From contig JAKFFN010000055.1 in NCBI GenBank assembly GCA_036675025.1, positions 10,752-74,751 on the forward strand: a stretch of 64,000 bases of DNA. Reading direction: 5' to 3'. The position numbers and the translations under genes were made by a program. Below, piece by piece: positions 7,620 to 33,971 of the stretch; within the stretch, counting starts at the first letter, position 1; every line of letters starts with the position of its first letter. The DNA comes from Candidatus Sumerlaeales bacterium (GTDB taxonomy: Bacteria; Sumerlaeota; Sumerlaeia; Sumerlaeales; Sumerlaeaceae). Under the pieces are notes generated by a model. It saw nothing but the letters and a program-made list of their open reading frames with translations, had not been told where the DNA came from and did no database searches.

Positions 7620-9026
7620 TTACTCGTAAAGATCCCAGCGTTGGGCTGCGGTAATATCTTCGAATGGTGGATATTCTGTTATATGAACGTTGATTAGCGC
7701 TCGCCACTCATCGGTCTCTAATGTATACCGGCCTGGGGTGACCACGCTTACAACTTGGGTGATGTCATCCATTTCTTCGTACACTTCCCCTGGTTCCTCA
7801 TCAATACCGTAGATAAGGTCGCCATCTACTTCTTCAACATTGGACTCAAGGCGCAGTTCAGTCTCATTCGGTTGCACTAGATCGTCAAACCACTTCAGGT
7901 TTACGGTAACAGAAGTATCCTGCTCCATTTCGACATAGGGAATACTGGCGTCATCCGCACGCACCTGGTGAATTGGATTTGTAATATTGTAAAGCACTTG
8001 TGCCTGCGGCGAGAAAACACGAACGCCAAACACGTACTCTCCATTGCCACCACTGCCATCACCATCAAACTCTTCTCGGGCTCTTACCTCTTCCAGGATT
8101 ATCGTTACGCGCTTGCGACCAAATATCTGAGCACCAATTCCGGCTCTCAGCCCCTCATAATCTTTAGTGCTCTCATGATTCGTGTGCATGGTGCTTAATG
8201 TAGGTTCCAGCCCAAGATAGAGACACTGCGGAGGCAGGTTCTCAAATTGCGAATCTTCTATTAACTGGACCCCATCATTGGCTTTTTCGCTCAAAAGGGT
8301 TATGAAATGCTCGTTAAAGTCATCGTCGCTGGCCAGCCATATATGGACCGGAAACTGTCCTAAGAAAGGAGAAGAACTGGTTTTTCTCGGGTCGTTAATA
8401 TGGTTTCTTACCCACTCATACTCCATATGCTCCACGTCAATGCTTGGAGCATCGTAGAAGTCATCGTAGAATTCTTCAAAGATGTCGCCACCATTGGTGG
8501 CTCCATGGTTTCCAGCAATTAAACCTTCAATAACAATCCAGCGTGCTATCTTGCCGCTGCTTGCCAACCCCTCAAGATCTTTTTCAATCATGTAACGGCT
8601 GATTAATCCGCCAAAGCTGATAGCATAGATATTGGCCTGTTCAGCACCACTACGTTGCACAACATGCTCTATGTACTTGGCCATTATCAACGCATAACGT
8701 GGAACACCATTTCCAGCAGCATCGACTTCAGTAATATCCTGTGCAGTGTAGTATGGCGGATGCTGATCGCCGTAATAAGTAGAGTATGCGATCTGATTTG
8801 GCGCTGTTGGAGCAATGTCGCCTGTGGGCAACCCTAGGGTATTAGCTAACTGCGTAACATATCCCTTGCTAAGGTCAGCACCAAACATGCCGTTTGTTCG
8901 GGCGCCGCTTGGATCAAATCCATGAACCACCACTGTGGCTACCTTATCGGGAGGAAAAGTCGCGGCTGTTGCCAGGGATCCCGCCGCGTTGACGATCAGC
9001 AAAGCTGCTATTACAAAGCGCGTCAT
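7620..9026 (-). CDS. secreted alpha/beta-hydrolase (lipase/esterase-like) with C-terminal beta-rich domain
   Basis: Signal peptide 'MTRFVIAALLIVNAAGSLATA', then 'VVVHGFD' and an AxSxG-type nucleophile elbow 'YAISFGG'. 468 aa. Confidence 0.55.
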   Translation of the reverse strand: MTRFVIAALLIVNAAGSLATAATFPPDKVATVVVHGFDPSGARTNGMFGADLSKGYVTQLANTLGLPTGDIAPTAPNQIAYSTYYGDQHPPYYTAQDITEVDAAGNGVPRYALIMAKYIEHVVQRSGAEQANIYAISFGGLISRYMIEKDLEGLASSGKIARWIVIEGLIAGNHGATNGGDIFEEFYDDFYDAPSIDVEHMEYEWVRNHINDPRKTSSSPFLGQFPVHIWLASDDDFNEHFITLLSEKANDGVQLIEDSQFENLPPQCLYLGLEPTLSTMHTNHESTKDYEGLRAGIGAQIFGRKRVTIILEEVRAREEFDGDGSGGNGEYVFGVRVFSPQAQVLYNITNPIHQVRADDASIPYVEMEQDTSVTVNLKWFDDLVQPNETELRLESNVEEVDGDLIYGIDEEPGEVYEEMDDITQVVSVVTPGRYTLETDEWRALINVHITEYPPFEDITAAQRWDLYE

Positions 9027-11602: not shown

Positions 11603-11796
11603 ATCAGTAACCTTTAAAGTGGGAGTGTCTGGTTCGGATAGACCGTGCGAACGTGCACAGACGTCGGCAAGAAAAACCTTTGTTTTTCTCCGGAAGGAAA
11701 AAGCTGCCGATGATTACTTGTAGCGTGTTTATGCTTGCCGAGCAGGTTAGCAGACCCGCAAGTAGGTCCACAATGTAGTAATAGGTTTGGAATCAG

Positions 11797-14700
11797 TTGG
11801 ATTTTGTCCATCTTCACGTACACAGTCACTATTCGCCCGATGGAGTAGCATCCGTTCGCGAACTGGTGCGTTACGCCGAGCGCCTGGGAATGCGGGCGCT
11901 CGCCCTGACGGACCAGGACACTCTCGCCGGTATCCCCGGTTTTTGCGCCGCCTGTCGGGATTTTGGTATACGCCCGGTTATCGGGTGTGATCTTACTATT
12001 GTTCCCATTGCACACGGAACAATAACTCCGGATAGACCTTTTCGTATCGTACTTCTCGCGGAAACCGAGGCTGGGTACCGTAATCTGGTAAGCCTGGTAA
12101 ATCTGGCGCATTCCCATTCAAGGCGTGTTAGAATTGACCTCGACGCGCTGGAAAAGTACTCGGGCGGGCTGATCGCCATGACGGGCAGTTCCTCTTCAGA
12201 ACTTTATCAACTGCTGCTAAACAACCGTATTGAGGAGACCGAGAACTACATCAGGAAACTTGCCAGAATTTTTGGACGGGAAAACCTGGTGTTTCAGCTG
12301 GAAGATGTGGAATCATCGCGACAAAAGCAGATTAACGACCGTACGTTTGCTCTAAGCGACTTCTTAGGCGTAAGAACAGTGGCTACCAATGCGGTTGCCT
12401 TCCTTCGGCCGGAAGACAGTCTTGCCCGCGATTTCCTGCTGCGAGGACGTTTCCCAAGTTTTCTCCAGTTCCAGGCAGCGCGTGAAACTGCTCACTCGCA
12501 GCATTTGGCCAGCGGCATGCAAATGCGCGACAGGTTTATGAAGTATCCCCGTGCCCTGTATGCCACAGAAGAATTGGCAGATCGCTGTTCTTTCCAGCCG
12601 AATTACCAGAAACGCCGTTTCCCTGTACATGATTTTGTGAGAGGCTTCGATGCCGACAGCTTCCTTTGGGACCTCACATTTCGGGAGGCGCGGGCCAAGT
12701 TCGTTGAGCTTTCTTCCGAAATGAAGAACCGCCTCAATGAAGAATTCGACTATATTAAGAGCCACGGGCTTTCAAACAACATGCTGCTGCTTTGGAACAT
12801 CGCGCAGTTTGTCAGGAAAAACAAAATCAGCGTCGGCGTAGGCCGCGGTGATATGATCACCAGCCTCGTGGCCTACATCCTTGGAATTACGCGAATCAAC
12901 CCATTGGATTACAAAATGCGATTCCTGGGTTTTAGCCGTGATAACCAAGGCGAGCCCGCTCTTTCTGTGGAGATGCCCGTTCGGCACATTGAAGCTCTCC
13001 ATGAGTTTATGCGAGGCACATTTGGATCAGATTTCTGCAGCGCTGTAGGCAAGTACACATGGTATCAGCGCCAGGGCCTTGGCCGAGATGTTCGGGCATG
13101 GCTGTATGCCAAGCCGGGACGCGTTGATCATGATTCCGAACTTCAGGAGAATCGAAACCTCAATGTCGACTCTCCCATTGAGGACTTTTTTCCCGGCAAG
13201 GTAGACGGCGTGGCCCTTCCCAGTGCCGAGTTTGAGAATTTCCTGCTATCGCGCCTCTTGCCGCGCCCGAAAGAACTTGTCCTGGATGAAAACCAGTTTG
13301 CGATTTCCTCGGAAAACTTAAACCATCTGACGCCGCGAGTGCCTGTAGATGATCAGTTTGTCACCCAGATGGACGGTCAGGCATTCGACCTGTTTCATAT
13401 TCCTCGTATAACTGTCATTACTGACCCCGTTTTAAACATACTTGATTCCGCGTCTACATGGGTACGAAAAGAGGAAAACGCAGCCTTTGATTCAGACCGC
13501 ATTCCCATGGATGACGAAGCAACTTATGAACTTCTCAGCAGAGGGCTTACTAACGGCATCGAGCCTTTCAGCAGCATTACGTTAAAAAGTCTTCTCCGGG
13601 CCCATCGTCCTAAGAACTTTATGGAGCTCCTTAAAGTAAAAGGTATGGAACGGGCGCCGAATAATGAAGGCAAAGGTGACGTCCGTGAGCATGTGCCGGA
13701 ATGTTTGCTGACCTACCGGTGCGCTTATATTAAGGCACATTATCCCATGAGCTTCATGGCGGCCCTATTGACCCACACCTTCAGGAACCGTCGCAAGTTT
13801 ACAGTTATCCTGCGAGAAGCCAAGCAGATGGGTCTGAAAATTCTGCCGCCGGACATCAACCTGAGCGTGTATGAGTTCAGTCAGGTCCATAAGGCAATCC
13901 GTACAGGTCTTTTAGTTGTAACTGGCATGGGGCCAAAGGCCTACGCAGAACTGCATGATACGCGCAAAGGCGGCGATTTCAATGATCTTATGGATCTAAT
14001 CCGGCGAACTGATTCAAAGCTCATCAACACGCGGCTTTTGAGTAACCTTGTGAAAGTAGGGGCGTTGGATGGCTTCGGATATAAGCGGAGCCAGATGCTG
14101 CATATTATAGAGCACGACGTGGAAGCGGCCCGCCGCAATGCCGGATCGCCCAGCCTGTTTGACGAGCAGGATGATCGGCCACAAACGATCGTTGCCATTG
14201 ATCCGCCCGATGCACCCGAAATGCCATTGCAGGAGATAATCCGTAACGAGATAGCTGCAGCCGGATATTGTATTGGATTTGATCAGTTGCTGCTCTATAA
14301 AGATCTTGTAGACAAATGCCGGGCACTGGCCCCTGGCGACCTCGTGCCACGTATGGTCGGTCGCGAAGTCCATGTGGCTGGGTTTCTCGATCATGTTGAA
14401 AGCGACAGCCCGCTTGTAGAGGAGAAAGAACATATTCTTCTCGACCTGGAAGGCCACGTAGTGACCATGCCTATCAAGATCAGTAGACTTTACGACCAGG
14501 CCTTACACGCGAGTGCGCCTGTGCTTATTGGCGGGACAGTACACCGGCGGAAAGATGAGGTTTATGTAAAAGGTGTGACAGCCTTTACCCTTCGAATGGT
14601 ACAGGAAATGAGTCAGCATGTTAAGGGGCTTGAACTGGATCTGTCCGGCGAAGATGCACGAACTGTTCGCTTAATAAAGGGCCTGGTAAGTCATTACCGC

Positions 14701-14979
14701 GGACAGGGGACAGCTATTACTCTTCAAAATGTGCCCGACGGTACATTTTCTAAATGGTACGCCAGGAGTATCGAGAAGACCCTGGTGTTTTTTAGCCCAC
14801 CGTTCTATTACGCTCTGAAAAAGATATTGCCCGAGCAGCGCATTCGAATTGTAGCAGAAGAGGAAATGGATCCGTCGCTGCTTCACGCCTTGTCTCCATT
14901 GCGGTATGAAATGCCGGAGGGAGCCACTCGCAAACGTCGCTTTGAGGAAGATGAGACTCACATTGTCGATGTGTACTGA
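11797..14979 (+). CDS. DnaE-like (DNA pol III alpha family) protein with degenerate polymerase motifs
   Basis: TTG start. PHP N-terminus 'FVHLHVHSHYS', thumb/palm remnant 'GVGRGDMITSLVAYILGIT', HhH-like 'LLSNLVKVGALDGFG', a clamp-motif-like 'SPSLFD' and an OB-like C-terminus. The catalytic Asp motifs and finger motifs were not found (see findings). Confidence 0.8.
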   Translation: MDFVHLHVHSHYSPDGVASVRELVRYAERLGMRALALTDQDTLAGIPGFCAACRDFGIRPVIGCDLTIVPIAHGTITPDRPFRIVLLAETEAGYRNLVSLVNLAHSHSRRVRIDLDALEKYSGGLIAMTGSSSSELYQLLLNNRIEETENYIRKLARIFGRENLVFQLEDVESSRQKQINDRTFALSDFLGVRTVATNAVAFLRPEDSLARDFLLRGRFPSFLQFQAARETAHSQHLASGMQMRDRFMKYPRALYATEELADRCSFQPNYQKRRFPVHDFVRGFDADSFLWDLTFREARAKFVELSSEMKNRLNEEFDYIKSHGLSNNMLLLWNIAQFVRKNKISVGVGRGDMITSLVAYILGITRINPLDYKMRFLGFSRDNQGEPALSVEMPVRHIEALHEFMRGTFGSDFCSAVGKYTWYQRQGLGRDVRAWLYAKPGRVDHDSELQENRNLNVDSPIEDFFPGKVDGVALPSAEFENFLLSRLLPRPKELVLDENQFAISSENLNHLTPRVPVDDQFVTQMDGQAFDLFHIPRITVITDPVLNILDSASTWVRKEENAAFDSDRIPMDDEATYELLSRGLTNGIEPFSSITLKSLLRAHRPKNFMELLKVKGMERAPNNEGKGDVREHVPECLLTYRCAYIKAHYPMSFMAALLTHTFRNRRKFTVILREAKQMGLKILPPDINLSVYEFSQVHKAIRTGLLVVTGMGPKAYAELHDTRKGGDFNDLMDLIRRTDSKLINTRLLSNLVKVGALDGFGYKRSQMLHIIEHDVEAARRNAGSPSLFDEQDDRPQTIVAIDPPDAPEMPLQEIIRNEIAAAGYCIGFDQLLLYKDLVDKCRALAPGDLVPRMVGREVHVAGFLDHVESDSPLVEEKEHILLDLEGHVVTMPIKISRLYDQALHASAPVLIGGTVHRRKDEVYVKGVTAFTLRMVQEMSQHVKGLELDLSGEDARTVRLIKGLVSHYRGQGTAITLQNVPDGTFSKWYARSIEKTLVFFSPPFYYALKKILPEQRIRIVAEEEMDPSLLHALSPLRYEMPEGATRKRRFEEDETHIVDVY

Positions 14980-15323
14980 CTTGACGATTCCTGCAGCTAC
15001 CTGCGGCAGTTAATCAGGAATGTTAGTCCAGGGATCTTCAACCGTAAGGGTTCCCGCATAGAAGATTTCCCGTTCCAAGGCTTCAGCGCAGAGAACCATC
15101 TCTATGCAGGGCGCTTCGTACCTTGTATCGACCATCTGATCAGCTGTCGGCAAAATCCGACTTTCCACGGGAATTGGCTCCTTGGTGCGATTCACTTTAG
15201 ATGTAACTCCATAGATGGCAACGTGTGTCAACGGTTATTCGCCAATTTATTAGTTATGCACTGTTATTGTGCGATATTAACATATTAGCAGCTTATAGCA
15301 AAAGGACGATAGAAAAAATCAGG

Positions 15324-15410
15324 TGGTGCCGGGACCGGGAATCGAACCCGGATGGCCGTGAGGCCGAGGGATTTTAAGTCCCTTGCGTCTGCCAATTTCG
15401 CCATCCCGGC
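15324..15410 (-). tRNA. tRNA-Leu (anticodon UAA), long variable arm
   Basis: Reverse complement: GCCGGGA acceptor stem, anticodon arm AGGGA-CTTAAAA-TCCCT, a long variable arm, T-arm CCGGG-TTCGATT-CCCGG, encoded CCA. Confidence 0.92.
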
Positions 15411-15497
15411 AGCTGCCAAAAAGCATTTTCTATTACGCTACAGGTCTCTGCAAATTCCCCGCCTGAAAACAAAGCCGCGAATGATGGGAAATTATCC

Positions 15498-15917
15498 TCA
15501 ATCGTTTATATCGACAACGTCGACATCTGCTGCTCTAAGCAGCGCTTCGGCTTTCGATGGCGATTGAACACCGAATATAACGAGTTGCGTTCTAGTGGAC
15601 TTGCCGGAGCAGGTATAGATATAATCCACGTTCAGGCGCGCATCGGAAAGAATCCTCAGTGCATTATCAAGTGTGCCCGGCTCGTCAAAAAGTTTCATCG
15701 CAACCGCCTCACCGATGTCTACGGTAAACCCGCAATCCTCGAGCGCTTCTGCAGCTACCTTGGCATTATCAACTACCAGGCGCACCCAACCTATTTTCCC
15801 TGTACTTGATGCCGCAATCCCCCGGATATTAATGTTGGATTCTGCCAGGATTGCAGTAACCTGCGTTAATTGCCCCGGTATATTCTTCAGCTGAACCGAC
15901 AGTTCAGGTACCGACAT
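15498..15917 (-). CDS. tandem ACT-domain protein
   Basis: 139 aa with two 'ferredoxin-like' ACT repeats ('LSVQLKNIPGQLTQVTAILAESNINI', 'AMKLFDEPGTLDNALRILSDARLNV'). Confidence 0.7.
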   Translation of the reverse strand: MSVPELSVQLKNIPGQLTQVTAILAESNINIRGIAASSTGKIGWVRLVVDNAKVAAEALEDCGFTVDIGEAVAMKLFDEPGTLDNALRILSDARLNVDYIYTCSGKSTRTQLVIFGVQSPSKAEALLRAADVDVVDIND

Positions 15918-16129
15918 CGTTTGTCTCCCGCGAATGATACGAGATTCCGCGTGGTCAACGTGAGAAACACAAGCGAAATCTACAGCGTACGGCGGTGGAA
16001 GCTAAGCCTTGGGCAGGAGGTAATATGTGGATTTTACCTTAGACCGATAATTATTAATTGAGTTTGGCATAACTTAAGTGATCAACTTTATAAGTAAACA
16101 AGACCATTTTCTCATTAGGAGAAACATCA

Positions 16130-16426
16130 ATGAAAGTCGCACTTGAACTTGGAGAAGTTTTAGACGTTGCGCTAGTTGAAGGTGACCGAATAATCGGTAC
16201 TTTAAGTCTGGAGCTTAAAGGACTTTCCGGTTCTTCTTCGCGTACGGTAGGTCGCCCTAGTGGCGCATCCGCAAAAACAGCGTCAACTGCCGCTGATTCC
16301 GCGGTTACAGGCCGTCGGCGCAAACGTAAGCCTATGTCTGATGAGGCACGTAAGCGGATGGCCGAAGCACAACGCAAACGGTGGGAAAAGTCCCGGTCCT
16401 CTGACGGGGAACCAACTAACGAGTAA
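16130..16426 (+). CDS. small hypothetical protein with basic C-terminal helix
   Basis: Strong AGGAG 8 nt upstream of the ATG and a terminator downstream. The C-terminus is 'GRRRKRKPMSDEARKRMAEAQRKRWEK'. Confidence 0.6.
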   Translation: MKVALELGEVLDVALVEGDRIIGTLSLELKGLSGSSSRTVGRPSGASAKTASTAADSAVTGRRRKRKPMSDEARKRMAEAQRKRWEKSRSSDGEPTNE

Positions 16427-16437
16427 CTCCAACTGCT

Positions 16438-16481
16438 TAAAAAGAAAAACAGCCGGCCTAAACAGCCGGCTGTTTTCATTT
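16438..16481. terminator. bidirectional rho-independent terminator
   Basis: CAGCCGGC-ctaaaca-GCCGGCTG hairpin flanked by an A-run upstream and TTTTCATTT downstream. It lies between convergent genes. Confidence 0.8.
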
Positions 16482-16491
16482 ACGCCCCCTT

Positions 16492-18186
16492 TTATGCCCC
16501 AGTTGGAAAAAACAATATTGCCGATAAAATGAGTCCTAATACGACGAGAGCTAAACTATAGAAAAACAACTTAAATAGCAGCGCGTTTATATCCAGCTTT
16601 AAGAAACCACAAATCCACACGTTTTGAGTAGTCGTGGGATCTTGCAGCATACTGACGGAATGAAGCGCACCCATCGTAGCTGCTGGCGGCATAAAGTTCT
16701 GCATCAACTTAGCGACACCTACACCAAGACCAAAGGAATTCAGTGGCCCACGATAAAGTGAGAGGGGAGCCGCGAGTAGGAAAAAGATGATATATCCCAT
16801 TTGAGTAGTGGGGATAACTCGTGCCAGAACAGGCGTCAGAATACTTTCTACCATTGGATGCGTTGCAGCAGCTATTAGCATTCCAATACCAACCATCAGT
16901 ATCACAGGCGCAGCCACGTCAGCTACGCCATTCATTATTGAGCGGCCAAGTTTCTGAAGCGCTTGCGGGTCCGGAGTAGTAAGCACACCGTAGGCAAGTG
17001 ACGCCATAAAGGCAGGTATAAAAGCCTCGCCGAAGCCAAGGCCAAGGAGAAACAGCAGCGGCAATATAGGCGTAAGCAGCGTCCACCCGTCCAATATCTT
17101 GTTTTTTACATGATAGTTAAACTGTACTACGATGATGCCGATAACGAGTATTGCCCACGCTACCCACTTAAGGCCGGCGCTGATATTATCTTTAGCTACT
17201 ACCATGGAATGAAATACCGCCCGGCCGGAACTCGGAATCAGAGGCTCAAACTTGTCAAAAAATACAAATAGCATTAGGACAGCAGCTACCAGCGCAAAGC
17301 GGCCTAGCGACGCTGCAATGCTGCGTCCCGACAGGTTAATGCGCTTCATGCGGAGGAACTCGATTGTCAGGAAAGTAACGAGGACAATTACCTGCAATGA
17401 AGCCCAAATGAGAGAGTAGGCTCTGACCCGGGAAACTGATACAGAAAAGACCTCGGATACCCGTGCCCACTCTGCAGGGTTTAACGCAGCGCCAATGGGA
17501 AACGCCAGAAGTAATATACTGCCGCACACCGGAGCTGGTACCCCCAATGACAGCAAAATCGGAAACATCACAGTACCCAGCATAATGATCATCGGCAGGC
17601 CGCCCGCCGCCGTAAAAATCAGTATGGTGATGGCTGACATAAGCAGCGCGACGTTAAACGGATTCTCCCCACCGTATTCCGCTGCGTATTTTACAATGCG
17701 CTCGGCGATTCTGGCATCGCTGATAAACCGTGCAAAAATGCCGCCGAAAAGCACCCAGATGATTGCCTTGTAAAGCTGGAAACTGCCAGACGGGGCAGGC
17801 GAAGTTTTGCCCTCAAGTATGGCCTGCAGTATGCCGTCAGGGCCACGGAACGGGACACCAGCAACCATTCCAATACCTAAGGCCATCAGGGGCAGTGCAA
17901 GCATGGCCGGTAGTTTTCGCGTAGCGATAGCGACTGCAATGATTACGAAAAGCACAAAGATCAGAGCCGAACGCGTAGCTTGTTCCGTGGTTATAGGCTC
18001 TGACAGAAACTGCTCGGCAATTTTCTCATAATCTACTTCAACGGGTGCACTGCCGGATGTGACTTCCTGCGCGGTAGTTGTTAATGGCTCTGTGGTCTGG
18101 GCAAATAATGAGGCCCCACTGGTGACTACGAAGAACAGAAGTAATAGGGGAGAAATCAGTTTAAGTAGATGAAATTTTAAGGGCAT
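16492..18186 (-). CDS. polytopic membrane transporter (ion-transporter-superfamily-like; family unresolved)
   Basis: More than 12 hydrophobic segments and an N-terminal signal-like 'MPLKFHLLKLISPLLLLFFVVTSGASLFAQ'. Start chosen at that Met rather than the longer ORF. Confidence 0.55.
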   Translation of the reverse strand: MPLKFHLLKLISPLLLLFFVVTSGASLFAQTTEPLTTTAQEVTSGSAPVEVDYEKIAEQFLSEPITTEQATRSALIFVLFVIIAVAIATRKLPAMLALPLMALGIGMVAGVPFRGPDGILQAILEGKTSPAPSGSFQLYKAIIWVLFGGIFARFISDARIAERIVKYAAEYGGENPFNVALLMSAITILIFTAAGGLPMIIMLGTVMFPILLSLGVPAPVCGSILLLAFPIGAALNPAEWARVSEVFSVSVSRVRAYSLIWASLQVIVLVTFLTIEFLRMKRINLSGRSIAASLGRFALVAAVLMLFVFFDKFEPLIPSSGRAVFHSMVVAKDNISAGLKWVAWAILVIGIIVVQFNYHVKNKILDGWTLLTPILPLLFLLGLGFGEAFIPAFMASLAYGVLTTPDPQALQKLGRSIMNGVADVAAPVILMVGIGMLIAAATHPMVESILTPVLARVIPTTQMGYIIFFLLAAPLSLYRGPLNSFGLGVGVAKLMQNFMPPAATMGALHSVSMLQDPTTTQNVWICGFLKLDINALLFKLFFYSLALVVLGLILSAILFFPTGA

Positions 18187-18264
18187 GGAATCTTTCCAAT
18201 TTAAGGCTGGTGGGGTTCTGCGGGGCGAGAACCTGCGAGTCAAGCAAAGCGTTGCACTGTTGCG

Positions 18265-19635
18265 CTACCTGAGGGAGAGGACCTGCCCGACGGCAAATGC
18301 TGCTTCCAGAGATAAAATGGTAAACGCCCACGCCCTCGAGAAATTCCTCATTCCGTACGCGGCAAAAACTATCAGGATAAATTCCAGGGAAAATCTCTGT
18401 CTGGATGCCTCCCCCTGGTAAACTGCTGACAAAAAAATGAGAGCTGACAGCCCCAACACTGCAAGAGGGACAACGGCCGCGGAAATGTTTTTTCTCACAA
18501 CTTGATAGAGCCCGGCAAATGCCAATGGATAAATCAGTAAATAGAAGTACCACATGCCAGGATACATGCCGTACATCGGAGTGGGTTCTGGAAGAATGAG
18601 CCATGCATACGGCGCGAGGAAAAGCCTTGGAATGCCTGCGGCCATTCCAAGCAGTAGCTGCGAGGGCGTTCCAATGTCTGGGGGCGCCAATGCCAGAAAG
18701 CTATCACGGAGTTGTCTAAATATGGCGTTGCCGCCGGTAGTATAGGCGCCAATGAGCACAAGGAATAAGGCGCCGATTGCTGCACTCCGGATCAAAATCT
18801 TTCGCTTTAGCCGCATAAAGGGGAGCAGTGCTGCCCCTGCTACGACGCCCATCGCTGTGTAAGCCCGAACGGTAAACATATAAGGGAGAACAAAGAGCGC
18901 TCCCACTGCAAGGCGGGTGCTTTTTCTGCGGTACGCGCCCAGCACCAGTGTAAGGCCCGCTAGAAACACGAACGCTACATAGGTATCCTTCATTAAATAT
19001 GACGCCCAATAGAACTGTGTAGGGTGCAAGGCGGCCAGAATGCCCGCAATAAGTCCGTAGTCGCTTCGCAAGGTATCCGCTCCACCTTCTGAATCCGGGC
19101 TCCACAAGTAGCGGCTGATAAGGGCGCAAAAAAGTGGGAAGCAGGCAGCGCATACCGCATTAAGCAAAAGTCCGCAAATTGTGGATGAGCCAAAGATCAG
19201 GAACAGCGTACTGAGCGGGCGATGATAACCCGTGTGGAGGGTGCCAAGGTAAGGCGGTGAGCCCTTTAGTCCTATCTCAGGGTATTCGCCAGCGCCCCAT
19301 GCACCGGCTATGGCTTTGGCTTCTCGAAAGTAATTGTGGTCATCCTTCCAGTAGGTACCAAACACGGAGGCATCATAAAAATGGGATCTTCCTAATGCCC
19401 AGCCCACGTGGAGAACCAGCATAACCAGGCATACTAGCAGTATCCGCCGCCCCACCGGCGATCTTAGGTAACTAGATTCAGCCCGGACAATAGCAAATGC
19501 CGGTAGAGCCAGCATGGTGATCCAGAAGAACCAGGGCGCTATACCATGAGTTAGCACCGCTGCAAGCCCCCACAGCACGGTGGCTGCAGTCTCGATGTGT
19601 TTCTGTAGGTTAAGCTGGCGTATTAGGGGGTTCAT
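18265..19635 (-). CDS. polytopic membrane protein (possible GT-C-type glycosyltransferase or polymerase)
   Basis: About 12 TM segments with aromatic-rich loops. There is no soluble domain. The start is uncertain (19635 or 19689). Confidence 0.5.
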   Translation of the reverse strand: MNPLIRQLNLQKHIETAATVLWGLAAVLTHGIAPWFFWITMLALPAFAIVRAESSYLRSPVGRRILLVCLVMLVLHVGWALGRSHFYDASVFGTYWKDDHNYFREAKAIAGAWGAGEYPEIGLKGSPPYLGTLHTGYHRPLSTLFLIFGSSTICGLLLNAVCAACFPLFCALISRYLWSPDSEGGADTLRSDYGLIAGILAALHPTQFYWASYLMKDTYVAFVFLAGLTLVLGAYRRKSTRLAVGALFVLPYMFTVRAYTAMGVVAGAALLPFMRLKRKILIRSAAIGALFLVLIGAYTTGGNAIFRQLRDSFLALAPPDIGTPSQLLLGMAAGIPRLFLAPYAWLILPEPTPMYGMYPGMWYFYLLIYPLAFAGLYQVVRKNISAAVVPLAVLGLSALIFLSAVYQGEASRQRFSLEFILIVFAAYGMRNFSRAWAFTILSLEAAFAVGQVLSLR

Positions 19636-19721
19636 GAAGTTGGCAAAGGCAAAAAATATGCGGCAGCTTGAGTAGTCAAGCTGCCGCATACGATCTTAGC
19701 AGAAGTTATGTGAAAGAGAAA

Positions 19722-21561: not shown

Positions 21562-23775
21562 ATGTCACACAGATTCCGGATTGCCACATTAACGGTAAGT
21601 GCGTGCGTCTTTGCCTCGCTGGCATTCGCCCAGCCGGGGCGGGAAGATATGTCAAAACGCGAACGCAAAGAAGCGCGCCAGGCGGAACGGCAGCAGGATA
21701 GCCGCCAGCAGCAGTCAGGCAGCCAGGAGCGCCAGCAGCAGGAGAGCCGGCAGCAGGTAGAGCGTCAGGCCCGCCAGCAGCAGGAACAATCACAGAAGGC
21801 TGAACGCCAGGCTAGCCAGCAGCAGGCGCGTCAACAGCAGGAACGTCAGCAGCAGGAAGAGCGTGCCCGCCGGCAGCAGCAGGAGCAATCGCAAAAATCT
21901 GCCCAGCGCGAGGCTCAGCAGGAGCGACAGGCCGCTCAGGAGCGTGCAAAGCAACAGCAGTCTCGTGAACAGGCAGAACAGCGCGCCTCCCAGCAGCGCG
22001 AAAAGCAGCAGGAGGCAGAGCGCCGTCAGCAGCAGGAGCAGTCACAAAAGGCAGCCCAACGCCGTGAACAACAGGAGCAGCAGGCCAATCAGCAGCGCCA
22101 GAAAGAACAGGCTCAGGAGCAGGCGGAACGCCGTGCAACTCAGCAGCGGGAAAAGGAATTAGAGCAATCTCGCAAGCAGGAGCAGGACCAGGCTAAACGC
22201 GAGGCTCAACAGCGCGAGCAGCAGGAACGGCAGGCTGGTCAGCAGCAGGAAAAACAAGCTAAGCAAGAGGCTGAACAGGCCCGCAAAGCACAGCAGCAGG
22301 CTGAACAGGAAGCCAAACGCCAGGCTCAGCAGGAGCAGAAGGCTGCTAAAGGCCAGCAGCAGCAGGGACAGCAGCAGCAGGGTCAGCCGACTGATCGCAA
22401 GGCTGAGCAGCAAGCAGAACGAGCTGCGCGCCAGGAATCCGAGCAGGCTCGAAAGGCACAGCAGCAGGCCGAACAGGAAGCCAAGCGCCAGGCTCAGCAG
22501 GAGCAGAAGGCCGAACAGGATCGCCTGAAAGCGGAGCAGCGCGCACAGAAAGCCCAGACCGAGGAAGAACGTAACGCTGCCCGCCAGGAAGAACAGGCAG
22601 CCCGCAAACAGGCAGACGACGCCCGCAAGGCTCAACGGCAGGCCGAGCAGGACGCAAAGACAGCTGCGCAGCAGCAACAGCAGACCGCGCAGCGTGGCCA
22701 GCAGGATCTACAGCAGGGAGACAAGCAGGCGCAGAAGGAAGCACGTAAAGCTGAAGAGCAGCAGCGGCAGGCAGAGCGCCGCCAGGCCAAGGAAGAGCAG
22801 AAGCGCCTTGCCCAGGAAGCTAAAGGTCAGGAGCAGGCTGCAAAACAGGCTGCCAAGGAAATCAAGCTTGCCGAGCGTCGCGGCACTACAGCTGACATCG
22901 TTGGCGCCACAACAATGGTAGATGACGATGGTCAGCAGGTGGCAACTGGTCTTTCTAAAAAGGAACGTCGGAGGCTTTCCGCTGATGGTCGCCAGGCACT
23001 GAAACAAGCTGAGCAGGCACATAAGGTACTTGAGCAGGCGCTCCGTCGCGATGAAAAGGGTAAAAAGCTCAGCAAGGCACAACAGGCTGTATTGGTTGGA
23101 GCAGACGTCCTGCCAAGTAATTTAAGCAACGACAGATATTTTAACCACCTGTCTAGCGACGATGCCAAGATTGTAATCAACAACATCAAGATCAAGAATG
23201 TTAACAAAGACATCGACATTATCAACAATGGCGTCTGGAACCAGTTCCAGAACAACATCATCCCTGACCGCTATCGCCCCTATGGTGATTATGGCAGGAT
23301 CAATGCGCCGCTACATTACATTGACGATTACGACCCATACTTCCTGCCGCCGCCTGCACCTATCGGTGGTGGAGGCCTGGAGTTTGGTTTCGAATGGAAC
23401 TACTGGGACGGACACTCTTACTATGATCATGGGTATGCCAGCGACCTCTTTATTAGCATAGGTCACACCCGCTACAACGGCTATGACGGCATTGTTACCG
23501 GTGGTCGTTATTGGAGCTACGGCCATGGTTGGATCGATGGCTGTATCGACTACGGTCACCGCCGCATGTGGGTTCCGGGCTTCTGGGCCCCTTATACGGT
23601 AGAAGAATGCGGAACGGTACCCATCTGGCTGCCCCCGGTTTACGAAGACGTGTGGACCGGCTGCTGTTGGGAGCGTATCCAGGTCGATGGCGGATACTTT
23701 GTACCGTCGCCGCCAGAGTGTCACCTGGTTACTCGCTATACCTGGATTCCAGGCCACTACGAGTATTACTACTAA
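21562..23775 (+). CDS. secreted protein: signal peptide + ~430-aa Q/E/R/K/A low-complexity helix + aromatic/Gly/Cys-rich C-terminal domain
   Basis: Signal 'MSHRFRIATLTVSACVFASLAFAQ'. 'QQQE(R/Q)Q...' runs cover residues ~30-455. The C-terminus carries 'WVPGFWAPY' and 'WIPGHYEYYY'. A terminator follows. Confidence 0.7.
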   Translation: MSHRFRIATLTVSACVFASLAFAQPGREDMSKRERKEARQAERQQDSRQQQSGSQERQQQESRQQVERQARQQQEQSQKAERQASQQQARQQQERQQQEERARRQQQEQSQKSAQREAQQERQAAQERAKQQQSREQAEQRASQQREKQQEAERRQQQEQSQKAAQRREQQEQQANQQRQKEQAQEQAERRATQQREKELEQSRKQEQDQAKREAQQREQQERQAGQQQEKQAKQEAEQARKAQQQAEQEAKRQAQQEQKAAKGQQQQGQQQQGQPTDRKAEQQAERAARQESEQARKAQQQAEQEAKRQAQQEQKAEQDRLKAEQRAQKAQTEEERNAARQEEQAARKQADDARKAQRQAEQDAKTAAQQQQQTAQRGQQDLQQGDKQAQKEARKAEEQQRQAERRQAKEEQKRLAQEAKGQEQAAKQAAKEIKLAERRGTTADIVGATTMVDDDGQQVATGLSKKERRRLSADGRQALKQAEQAHKVLEQALRRDEKGKKLSKAQQAVLVGADVLPSNLSNDRYFNHLSSDDAKIVINNIKIKNVNKDIDIINNGVWNQFQNNIIPDRYRPYGDYGRINAPLHYIDDYDPYFLPPPAPIGGGGLEFGFEWNYWDGHSYYDHGYASDLFISIGHTRYNGYDGIVTGGRYWSYGHGWIDGCIDYGHRRMWVPGFWAPYTVEECGTVPIWLPPVYEDVWTGCCWERIQVDGGYFVPSPPECHLVTRYTWIPGHYEYYY
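22273..22511 (+). repeat. two ~71-nt near-identical copies inside the Q-rich gene
   Basis: 22273..22343 and 22441..22511 both encode 'EQARKAQQQAEQEAKRQAQQEQKA'. The copies start 168 nt apart. Confidence 0.85.
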
Positions 23776-32231: not shown

Positions 32232-33971
32232 ATGAGAGATCCTCAAACACGCCCTCGATTTCCCTATGCATGGTGGGCATTTGCAGTGCTTTGGTTCGCT
32301 GGGTGGCACTTGATGCATACGTGGCAGGTCTGGCTGGATCCCACAATGCGGGTGCCCGGCCCCATTGGAGACAATACGGTAATGCTCTGGAACCTTGGAT
32401 GGGTGAGGCATGCCTTAAACCACGGGCATCCCGGTTTCTGGTTCGCAAATGCGTACTACCCGGATGGCTTTCTTTTTCTCTATGGCACTCATACCTGGCT
32501 TGACGGATTCTTGGGCTGGCTGTTTTCACCGGTGTTGCCAGGTGGAATAGCCGCATCCATTTTGTGGGCCAACATAACTATGGCTTTGGCAACGGTCGTA
32601 AGCGGACTCGCTGTGATTGGGGCACTTAGAGCATGGGGAATCCGTCAGTGGCCTATCCTGATCCTGGTTGCTTCAATGGTAGTATTTTCATGGTTCAGGA
32701 TGTTTGCACTGCAAGGCCATTACCATTTTTATGGAACTCAATGGATGCTTCTTTGCCTGGCATTCGTCTCCGCTTCTCGCCGCGCCTTTCTTGATCGCCA
32801 TAGGCCCAAGGCCATAAACCTCATGATATGTGCCGGGCTGACGCTTGGTCTCACATTCCTTAACGACCAGACCATGGCGGTGTTTGCTGGTATTCTTGGC
32901 GGCCTGGTAATTATAAGCGGTGCAACGTCGGCGGGTGATAACCGGCTGAAGAACCTGGTTTTACCATTTTTCATCTTCTATGGTCTGTCTCTTATTCCCG
33001 CCAGTGTTCATCTTATACCGCTGGTCGTCTCGCTGGCAGATAACAGCTTAAATTATAACGTAAGCCTGGATACTCCTCGTCTTGTTGATGCAACCAGCTT
33101 GATTATACCGCCCGAGATCAGTTGGCTCGGCTTTCAGATATCCGGGCTGCGGGAAGGCTACGGATTTACTTGGGCGGAGGGTACTTATCTGGGCATAGTA
33201 CCTATCTCACTTCTGCTGGTCATCACCTTTGGTGCAATACGGTATATTCTCAAAAAGCCCGGCGAGCGTCCACAGTATCTGCGCGTGAGTTTTTACTCGG
33301 CATTGCTAGCGTGGCTGTTCATCCTGCTGGCAATGGGTGATACATTGATGCTGGGTCGCGACCAGTTCAATGCGATGCCAGGGCGGCTTTTGCGGCAGAT
33401 TCCTGTGTTAAACAATATCCGTCTGCCGCAGCGCTGGGTCTGGCCAGCTCACCTGTGTATTGCACTTGGCGGAGCCTCAGTCCTTGCGCTGGCCATACAG
33501 GCTAAGAAACAGTCCTGGCTCCGTTGGCTACCATTGGCGATAGCTGTAATACCAGCCCTGGAAGCTATCAGGTATCCCGCTGTAGCCCCGGTAGATTACA
33601 GAAACGACGCCTTTCTTCGTCCGCCCGGCCTGATTGAAGCTGTGCAAAAGCACTATACGGGTGGGGGAGTGCTTGTAATGCCGCCGGAAATAGCGTATGC
33701 GCATTCAAACGTCTTCCAGTTCCAGTGGGGCTATGACATTCCGGTTACCGTAGCCTACACAGCCCGAATGCCGTTTAAGATACAGGAACTCCCATGGAAG
33801 GGTCGCGTTTGGACACTAGAAACCGCTGAGTGGCTCCAGAAGAAAGACGTCACCATGATCGTCTTCGCTTTTCACGATGGCAAGGTACTGGAGTATCAGT
33901 CGTGGCTTACAGAAGCCAGGAAAGCAGTACCGGGAGTTATTGTTCTGAACAGGTTTGGTGAAGCGATATAA
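32232..33971 (+). CDS. polytopic membrane protein with C-terminal periplasmic domain (GT-C-like; hypothetical)
   Basis: 579 aa with about 12 TM segments, Trp/aromatic-rich loops and a soluble C-terminal region of about 130 aa. Confidence 0.5.
   Translation: MRDPQTRPRFPYAWWAFAVLWFAGWHLMHTWQVWLDPTMRVPGPIGDNTVMLWNLGWVRHALNHGHPGFWFANAYYPDGFLFLYGTHTWLDGFLGWLFSPVLPGGIAASILWANITMALATVVSGLAVIGALRAWGIRQWPILILVASMVVFSWFRMFALQGHYHFYGTQWMLLCLAFVSASRRAFLDRHRPKAINLMICAGLTLGLTFLNDQTMAVFAGILGGLVIISGATSAGDNRLKNLVLPFFIFYGLSLIPASVHLIPLVVSLADNSLNYNVSLDTPRLVDATSLIIPPEISWLGFQISGLREGYGFTWAEGTYLGIVPISLLLVITFGAIRYILKKPGERPQYLRVSFYSALLAWLFILLAMGDTLMLGRDQFNAMPGRLLRQIPVLNNIRLPQRWVWPAHLCIALGGASVLALAIQAKKQSWLRWLPLAIAVIPALEAIRYPAVAPVDYRNDAFLRPPGLIEAVQKHYTGGGVLVMPPEIAYAHSNVFQFQWGYDIPVTVAYTARMPFKIQELPWKGRVWTLETAEWLQKKDVTMIVFAFHDGKVLEYQSWLTEARKAVPGVIVLNRFGEAI

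Follow-up and report, generated by a model that had tools for sequence, protein, structure and literature searches.

A conserved, polymerase-dead clade within the DNA polymerase III alpha family of Sumerlaeota

What is a gene for the alpha subunit of DNA polymerase III kept for when the catalytic residues of the polymerase are gone? The question is raised by a dnaE-like gene in a 64,000-nucleotide stretch of DNA from a Candidatus Sumerlaeales bacterium (assembly GCA_036675025.1, contig JAKFFN010000055.1, positions 10,752 to 74,751), which is called the window here and supplies all coordinates unless another locus is named. The original prediction, made from the letters of this stretch, had described an intact DnaE-like frame with eroded polymerase motifs and had proposed that it is under selection for a non-catalytic role. 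The analysis presented here shows that the gene belongs to a deep family, so far known from Sumerlaeota only and under purifying selection, and this family represents a conserved group of dead polymerases among the Pol III alpha proteins, something not described so far for C-family polymerases.

The open reading frame (ORF) occupies window positions 11797..14979 on the + strand, stop codon included, and encodes an uninterrupted protein of 1060 residues from a TTG start; its extent is taken from the ORF list, the upstream stop codon, the Pfam matches and the starts of the orthologues. As had been noted originally, and as the ORF list and the sequence bear out, an in-frame TAG at 11782-11784 precedes the TTG by 15 nucleotides, so that the frame cannot begin further upstream. 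A non-ATG start (TTG or a GVG-type GTG) at the homologous codon is common to the closest orthologues, lying at position 11797 in the window, 5513 in locus L001, 3275 in L007, 10001 in L005 as well as in L002 and L006, and 9995 in L003. Chance can be discounted as the origin of this frame because its domains are matched with E-values of 1e-10 to 1e-36 and because it stays open over 3.2 kb in DNA of 51% G+C.

Catalytic sites and fold

The positions of the polymerase site were read from a HMMER (phmmer) alignment to the Pol III alpha subunit of Thermus aquaticus (Taq; 3e0d, 2hpi) and from a MAFFT alignment with four canonical DnaE1 proteins. Phmmer places Taq PDIDTDF over PALSVEM and Taq LLKMDFLGL over IPRITVITD, while in the MAFFT alignment D401, D403, D405 and D555 of E. 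coli correspond to A388, S390, E392 and T539, respectively. The former catalytic strand PALSVEM (residues 387-393, 12955..12975; this and all further features of the protein lie on the + strand) has A388 and S390 in place of the Asp pair of PDxDxDF and E392 at the D405 position, and the former third-Asp strand IPRITVITDPVL (residues 535-546, 13399..13434) carries T539 where the canonical KMDFLGL has D555. Both segments remain predicted β-strands in the AlphaFold2 model described below (389-392 and 537-541). The palm motif STHAAGVVI of canonical DnaE1 reads ENQFAISS, and a short linker (residues 615-636, 13639..13704) replaces about 103 residues of the fingers, including RPGP, YQEQ and GYGFNKSH. 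Measured in the MAFFT alignment, the fingers segment comprises 24 residues in the window protein against 126-128 in canonical DnaE1; phmmer likewise leaves Taq residues 698-821 unmatched, with query residues 619-635 spanning the gap. An alignment made by eye had already put PALSVEM at the catalytic PDFDVDF site, had found no counterpart of the KFDFLGL block and none of the three finger motifs, in a segment about 100 residues shorter. All of this is correct by HMMER and MAFFT, and the comparison with curated DnaE profiles and a Pol III alpha structure that had been proposed as a check yields A, S and T at the three Asp positions. Without ligands for the two catalytic metals and without the finger elements that bind the incoming nucleotide, the protein is not expected to be a polymerase, and would be unable to polymerise.

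The second catalytic site of the alpha subunit is the metal site of the PHP domain (residues 1-270, 11797..12606; Pfam PHP 3.4e-36). Its nine ligands read HHDHEHCDH in the four canonical DnaE1 proteins and HHDQDRSAA in the window protein (scored as 4/9): H7, H9 and D15 are kept, while His is replaced by Q40, Glu by D65, His by R83, Cys by S131, Asp by A199 and His by A201. This is not the pattern of an active PHP exonuclease or phosphoesterase (HHDHEH[C/H]DH). By this reading of the alignments the window protein is eroded at both catalytic sites of the alpha subunit, and proofreading by the protein of this species should be impossible. Across the family, ligand counts run from 9/9 down to 1/9. 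The site is fully intact in one basal member, and the basal members P0033 (HHDHEHCDH) and P0034 (HHDHEHCNH) hold eight to nine of the nine ligands; most members have lost three to eight of them, in differing combinations. A single loss of the polymerase site at the base of the family probably came first, followed by separate decay of the PHP site in many of its lineages.

The remainder of the molecule is that of an alpha subunit. Four Pfam domains score above their gathering thresholds, namely PHP (3.4e-36, residues 5-167), DNA_pol3_alpha (7e-21), DNA_pol3_finger (8e-10) and HHH_6 (4.2e-21); the DNA_pol3_alpha match spans only profile positions 5-168 of 260, which is the N-terminal two-thirds of the palm domain, and the DNA_pol3_finger match is confined to positions 2-76 of 166. 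An OB domain stays under the Pfam threshold in the window protein. All NCBIfam DnaE models match, each with a score under its cut-off: the DnaE1 equivalog NF004226 gives 439 (cut-off 1002), the superfamily TIGR00594 gives 412.8 (cut-off 434.35) and the DnaE2 model NF004225 gives 271.7 (cut-off 939), which places the protein outside DnaE2, with the DnaE1 models as its best similarity. The peptides quoted in the original prediction were all located, among them FVHLHVHSHYS at residues 3-13 (the PHP N-terminus), AETEAGYRNLVSL at residues 88-100 and LLSNLVKVGALDGFG, described as HhH-like, at residues 747-761. At the start of the palm, the alignments reveal a conserved block, RRFPVHDFVRGFDADSFLWDLTFREAR (12613..12693), that differs from canonical DnaE1 and contains R282 and S288, which are kept across the deep family and are different in canonical DnaE1; further on lies the palm entry GVGRGDMITSLVAYILGITRINPLDY (residues 347-372, 12835..12912; GVGRGDMITS...), the counterpart of the canonical GPGRGSAAGSLVAY.

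An AlphaFold2 model built from a 41-sequence alignment of the family is confident (mean predicted local distance difference test score (pLDDT) 86, predicted template modelling score 0.78), with four short low-confidence loops only. When this model is searched against the PDB with Foldseek, the full-length Pol III alpha structures 2hpi, 7pu7, 3e0d, 4iqj and 5fkv are found (E 1e-47 to 1e-57, template modelling (TM) scores of 0.6-0.7) in alignments that cover about 1100-1200 columns, followed by PolC, then by isolated PHP proteins, and then, for the C-terminal part, by OB folds. The β-binding/HhH domain occupies residues 679-767 (13831..14097; HHH_6, as above). An OB fold is predicted at about residues 855-935 (14359..14601), where the modelled strands at 857-931 resemble the OB folds of AspRS, RPA and Stn1; the OB-like C-terminus that had been suspected from the letters is thus borne out by the model and its Foldseek matches to AspRS and RPA. 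A C-terminal α/β domain at about residues 936-1043 (14602..14925) takes the position of the tau-binding domain of DnaE1, as indicated by the phmmer alignment to Taq residues up to 1157 and by the full-length Foldseek alignments to 2hpi, 3e0d and 4iqj. The model thus shows a complete alpha-subunit architecture, predicted to consist of PHP, palm, thumb, reduced fingers, HhH/β-binding, OB and C-terminal domains.

Family, selection and conserved positions

A search of 5.8 billion proteins returned 41 clusters of 1013-1092 residues, ranging from 100% down to 30% identity and none with a Pfam OB match, before canonical DnaE1 proteins appeared, which match about 60% of the query at about 30% identity. 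The same catalytic losses are present in 41/41 of these close clusters. In a profile search of 1.84 billion representatives at 50% identity, at least 46 family clusters are found among the best 150 matches; all 46 are without the PDxD and KxD motifs, and a linker of 15-36 residues stands where canonical proteins have a finger segment of about 127. Sequence identities within the family reach down to about 25-30%. Orthologues are labelled "PHP domain-containing protein [Candidatus Sumerlaeaceae]" by NCBI, and the family proteins are labelled "DNA polymerase III alpha subunit" by JGI.

Scans of GTDB species genomes, with one query from the close clade and one from the most remote subclade, gave 17 and 18 loci, respectively. 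These 35 species loci are labelled Sumerlaeota, Sumerlaeia, Sumerlaeaceae or BRC1, except for four labelled "bacterium" only, and the matches that come next, at 24-28% identity, are canonical DnaE1 proteins from other phyla. The family forms a monophyletic group apart from canonical DnaE1 in a neighbour-joining tree. The window sequence itself is present in soil metagenomes; the contig index has no exact record of the window protein.

Selection on the gene is apparent from its orthologues. The window gene and 32 genome copies are uninterrupted single ORFs of 1015-1128 residues, one with a longer, upstream-extended frame, and the other three of the 35 genome copies are cut by contig ends only, so that the frameshifts that had been named as a sign of decay are found in none of the copies not cut by contig ends. 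Compared with its closest orthologues (81-84% protein identity), the window gene has a proportion of synonymous differences (pS) of about 0.8, which is saturated, and a nonsynonymous divergence (dN) of 0.11-0.14. As the synonymous divergence (dS) is saturated for nearly all pairs, dN and saturation are given here instead of ratios; the single pair with a finite dS has a dN/dS of about 0.05, and every computable per-domain value is ≤0.1, the former catalytic segment included. In the same genome pairs, the protein is conserved about as well as the adjacent GFO/IDH/MocA oxidoreductase. The gene thus has the properties of a pseudoenzyme under selection: its catalytic residues are lost, its ORF is intact and it is under purifying selection across orthologues. 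The original proposal of selection for a non-catalytic role gains support from these uninterrupted frames, from the low dN against a saturated dS and from the occurrence of the losses throughout the family.

The 58 most conserved positions of the 46 clusters are nearly all shared with canonical DnaE1, being mainly fold-determining Gly, Pro and Leu with a few charged residues; R282, S288 and G418 are family-specific positions among them. By mean column entropy over the 46 clusters, the HhH/β-binding domain is the most conserved part of the protein, while the entropy is highest in the thumb, OB and C-terminal domains. An internal β-clamp motif, SPSLFD (residues 784-789, 14146..14163), lies in a disordered loop (pLDDT <50 at 783-797) and is aligned by phmmer with the internal clamp motif region GLVGLFAE of Taq. 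In 35/46 clusters, xxx[LMFIV]F (e.g. QLQLF, SPSLF, PLEFF and QATLF) occurs in the loop that follows the HhH domain, and the Phe of the motif, F788, belongs to the 58 most conserved positions. By sequence, the window protein thus carries a QxxLF-like clamp motif after the HhH domain as in DnaE1. Clamp or tau binding, scaffolding and PHP-domain activity had been offered as possible roles; clamp binding is the best supported of these in view of the distribution of the motif and the conservation of F788, whereas PHP-domain activity finds no support for this protein, with 4/9 ligands in the window protein and a site variably eroded across the family.

The protein ends in a disordered acidic tail, IVDVY-COOH (residues 1044-1060, 14926..14976; pLDDT <50). 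An alignment of C-termini shows (I/V)VD(V/A)Y-COOH in nearly all members of at least 50% identity (the Sumerlaeaceae-like clade) and its absence from the deeper subclades. The tail looks like a short linear docking motif for a partner and calls to mind the acidic C-terminal tips of proteins such as SSB.

Candidate roles and genomic setting

On balance, we lean towards a non-catalytic, clamp- and DNA-binding DnaE1 paralogue that would serve as an accessory or scaffold protein. Such a dead alpha subunit would dock on the β sliding clamp via its internal xxxLF motif and bind duplex DNA via the HhH domain; tethered to the clamp at primer-template junctions, it would serve the active polymerases of the cell (DnaE1 and, where present, DnaE2 or PolY) as an accessory or scaffold that organises them, holds their place or regulates them. 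Several observations weigh against this reading. Clamp and DNA binding are deduced from the conservation of a motif and a domain, the motif is unrecognisable in 11/46 clusters, and the thumb and OB domains are poorly conserved. Beyond the level of sub-clades, no conserved operon partner exists among the 35 loci. A canonical dnaE1 was retrieved for no Sumerlaeota genome, and its co-occurrence with the dead gene is deduced as well. Finally, eight exact 151-nucleotide pieces from four soil RNA libraries map within the gene, a weak hint of transcription, and these pieces are thin and may be DNA carry-over.

The same observations can be turned towards other readings. There is a minor yet real chance that the role is non-catalytic and has nothing to do with the clamp or the replisome, for instance that of a DNA-binding structural or regulatory protein which reuses the alpha scaffold. 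The lack of an operon partner and of replication genes nearby, the housekeeping neighbours and the clusters without a clamp motif would all fit, and the acidic IVDVY tail suggests a partner in one clade; however, the Phe of the motif is among the most conserved positions, the motif sits exactly at the DnaE1 site and the β-binding/HhH domain is the most conserved of all. It is unlikely that Sumerlaeota have an asymmetric replicase of which the dead alpha, bound to clamp and tau and never polymerising, is a stoichiometric and possibly essential structural subunit; if true, such a subunit arose at the origin of the phylum and has been kept ever since. A more extreme variant, in which replicative catalysis in the phylum comes from a different polymerase with the dead alpha as a scaffold, is still considered because canonical dnaE1 was not retrieved.

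Readings with a remaining or decaying enzyme fare worse. A PHP nuclease or phosphoesterase tethered to the clamp, with the polymerase lost and the PHP site working, is improbable and plausible for basal members only: PHP is the best Pfam match (3e-36), a few basal members such as P0033 and P0034 hold nearly all ligands, and PolX provides a precedent for a PHP exonuclease kept after the loss of polymerase activity (PMC12926913), but the window protein has HHDQDRSAA, and most members lack three to eight ligands yet are under purifying selection. As the ligands are lost in varied combinations under such selection, PHP catalysis is not what the whole family is kept for. An active polymerase with a relocated or unconventional site is very improbable. 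A carboxylate at the D405 position (E392) is found in roughly two-thirds of the clusters, judged by eye, and the GRG loop is partly kept; A, S and T, though, stand at the three metal-ligand positions, neither the STHAAG palm motif nor the dNTP-binding finger segment is left, and no alternative acidic cluster exists among the 58 most conserved positions. The erosion of the catalytic motifs and the NCBI name of the orthologues, which refers to the PHP domain only, could be read as signs of a decaying pseudogene or an annotation artefact. For practical purposes this can be dismissed because the ORF is intact in 35 species except at contig ends and synonymous sites are saturated while dN is low; in addition, the AlphaFold2 model is confident and the identities within the family span down to about 25-30%. 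The preferred reading thus remains that of a clamp-tethered accessory or scaffold protein.

Whether an active replicase is encoded beside the dead gene bears on all of these readings. A tblastn search of the window and the 35 family loci with canonical DnaE1 found the dead gene only, plus an active DnaE2-like gene in locus L004. Several canonical proteins were considered as the Sumerlaeota dnaE1 and rejected: P0042, the best canonical match by phmmer, is unrelated to Sumerlaeota, the top canonical representatives by family-profile score are from Firmicutes, and P0153 (locus L178, Logan contig SRR22387954_138961, 14524 bp) is Planctomycetota-like. The gene for P0153 adjoins an rpoA-rpsD-rpsK-rpsM-rpmJ ribosomal cluster. 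No parent lineage of the family stands out among the canonical proteins. A DnaE1, DnaE3 or PolC replicase is present in every one of about 2000 (PMC3919608) and 3070 (PMC12926913) complete bacterial genomes. In the Sumerlaeota pangenome of Fang et al. 2021 (PMC8092238, Data Set S1h), two COG0587 families of 16 and 9 genes are listed, both inferred to be present at an ancestral node. This is only suggestive of a further alpha subunit, as the two families could alternatively be two subclades of the dead paralogue; the supplements of a second Sumerlaeota paper hold nothing on dnaE. Because of the published surveys, the intact polymerase of L004 and the two COG0587 families, we infer that Sumerlaeota genomes also encode a canonical DnaE1.

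The exceptional locus L004 (Sumerlaeaceae SSF23, JAIBAT010000141.1) carries, at 13211-17977 on the − strand, a PolIV-like Y-family gene of 396 residues directly upstream of a C-family polymerase. The latter is DnaE2-like, with 1189 residues, the intact motifs PPDIDLDL, KMDLLGN and GYSFCKGHS, a degenerate PHP N-terminus ('HLCAQS') and a TIGR00594 score of 542 (cut-off 434). The pair is convergent with the dead DnaE gene at a distance of 34 nucleotides, in 1/35 loci only, and this adjacency of PolY and an active C-family polymerase to the dead gene is probably coincidental. No imuA, imuB or PolY neighbour is found in 34/35 loci. Other neighbours were rejected as functional links: the GFO/IDH/MocA oxidoreductase upstream (7 loci) and a cyclophilin downstream (4-5 loci) are clade-local, and further recurrent neighbours (histidine kinase, ABC transporter) belong to generic multi-copy families. 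PADLOC models of defence systems gave no match.

The immediate neighbours of the gene in the window are an oxidoreductase gene in divergent orientation and, both convergent with it, tRNA-Leu and a gene for an ACT-domain protein, and its wider surroundings encode a transketolase, LptF/G, alanine dehydrogenase, AlaRS, PFK and an FAD-linked oxidase. The tRNA-Leu(UAA) gene (15324-15410, − strand) separates the dead DnaE gene from the ACT-domain gene and stands out in soil RNA libraries as a sharp peak of depth, whose loose ends are heterogeneous and tRNA-like. Upstream of the TTG by 50-60 nucleotides, a block TGTTTATGCTTGCC (window ~11735-11750) is kept in the window, in L007 and partly in L005, in regions that have otherwise diverged; it is not palindromic and may be a promoter or operator element. 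A scan for promoters (generic sigma-70) and terminators did not rise above shuffled expectation on the + strand. Inside the gene, antisense ORFs of 80-170 residues (window 11614-14961, − strand; e.g. 12364-12765 and 14014-14457) have similar counterparts in orthologous loci; they were treated as spurious, their recurrence probably resulting only from the conserved sense frame. Elsewhere in the window, large ORFs of 468-737 residues have no Pfam match at the thresholds used (7620-9026, 16492-18243 and 18265-19689 on the − strand), and the same holds for 21562-23775 and 32232-33971 on the + strand, in the same size range.

Comparison with known systems

C-family polymerases are the universal bacterial replicases, and a 2026 survey of 3070 complete genomes distinguishes DnaE1-3 and PolC only (PMC12926913). 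The same survey, whose data set contains no Sumerlaeota, reports inactivation of Y and X polymerases and of exonuclease domains from the A and B families, and none for the polymerase site of the C-family (PMC12926913). A C-family group with a lost polymerase site is described in neither of the two dedicated surveys (PMC3919608, PMC12926913), and a literature phrase search on inactive, noncatalytic or degenerate DnaE returned nothing relevant. A polymerase-dead and often PHP-dead clade that has a clamp motif implies a non-catalytic function of the alpha scaffold on which selection can act, and it provides a natural separation-of-function variant for the roles of alpha besides catalysis, such as occupying the clamp, binding tau or a partner, and handling DNA. 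In addition, the JGI label "DNA polymerase III alpha subunit" can misguide reconstructions of metabolism and replication as well as marker-gene analyses of the phylum.

The closest relatives by fold are the DnaE1 proteins of T. aquaticus (2HPI/3E0D/4IQJ), M. tuberculosis (7PU7) and E. coli (2HNH/5FKV), with which the dead paralogue shares the domain order, the full-length fold (TM 0.6-0.7), four Pfam domains and an internal clamp motif at the same site. The three catalytic Asp residues (E. coli D401, D403 and D555) are absolutely conserved in the C-family (PMC3919608). The dead paralogue, by contrast, lacks all three together with STHAAG and about 103 residues of fingers, scores under all DnaE cut-offs, has an OB domain under Pfam detection and forms its own clade. 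The use of the PHP domain as a structural module minus its metal ligands is likewise known from E. coli-type DnaE1 and from DnaE2 and DnaE3 with an inactive PHP (PMC3666897, PMC3919608); in those proteins, however, the polymerase site is absolutely conserved (PMC3919608), while it is lost in the dead family.

PolX with an inactivated polymerase site and 'PolX-like' proteins offer a parallel in which a PHP-bearing polymerase is retained although its site decays (PMC12926913). There, the PHP exonuclease is the conserved part, whereas the dead DnaE family shows decay of the PHP site as well. Dead paralogues kept as replisome subunits include the inactive C-terminal polymerase module of eukaryotic Pol epsilon and delta-prime of the clamp loader; they are a parallel in concept only, with folds and lineages unrelated to the dead alpha.

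The closest functional analogy to the dead alpha is ImuB, a polymerase fold that has lost its catalytic carboxylates and kept a β-clamp motif. ImuB is thought to be a clamp-bound adaptor for an active polymerase, DnaE2, in the mutasome (PMC12926913, PMC10421592). RecA-NT or ImuB-C features were not noticed in the dead alpha, although no search was aimed at them. The two do not belong to the same family, as ImuB has a Y-family fold and the dead alpha a C-family fold, and ImuB is encoded in a conserved operon or regulon with its partners DnaE2 and ImuA, whereas the dead DnaE gene stands without a conserved neighbour.

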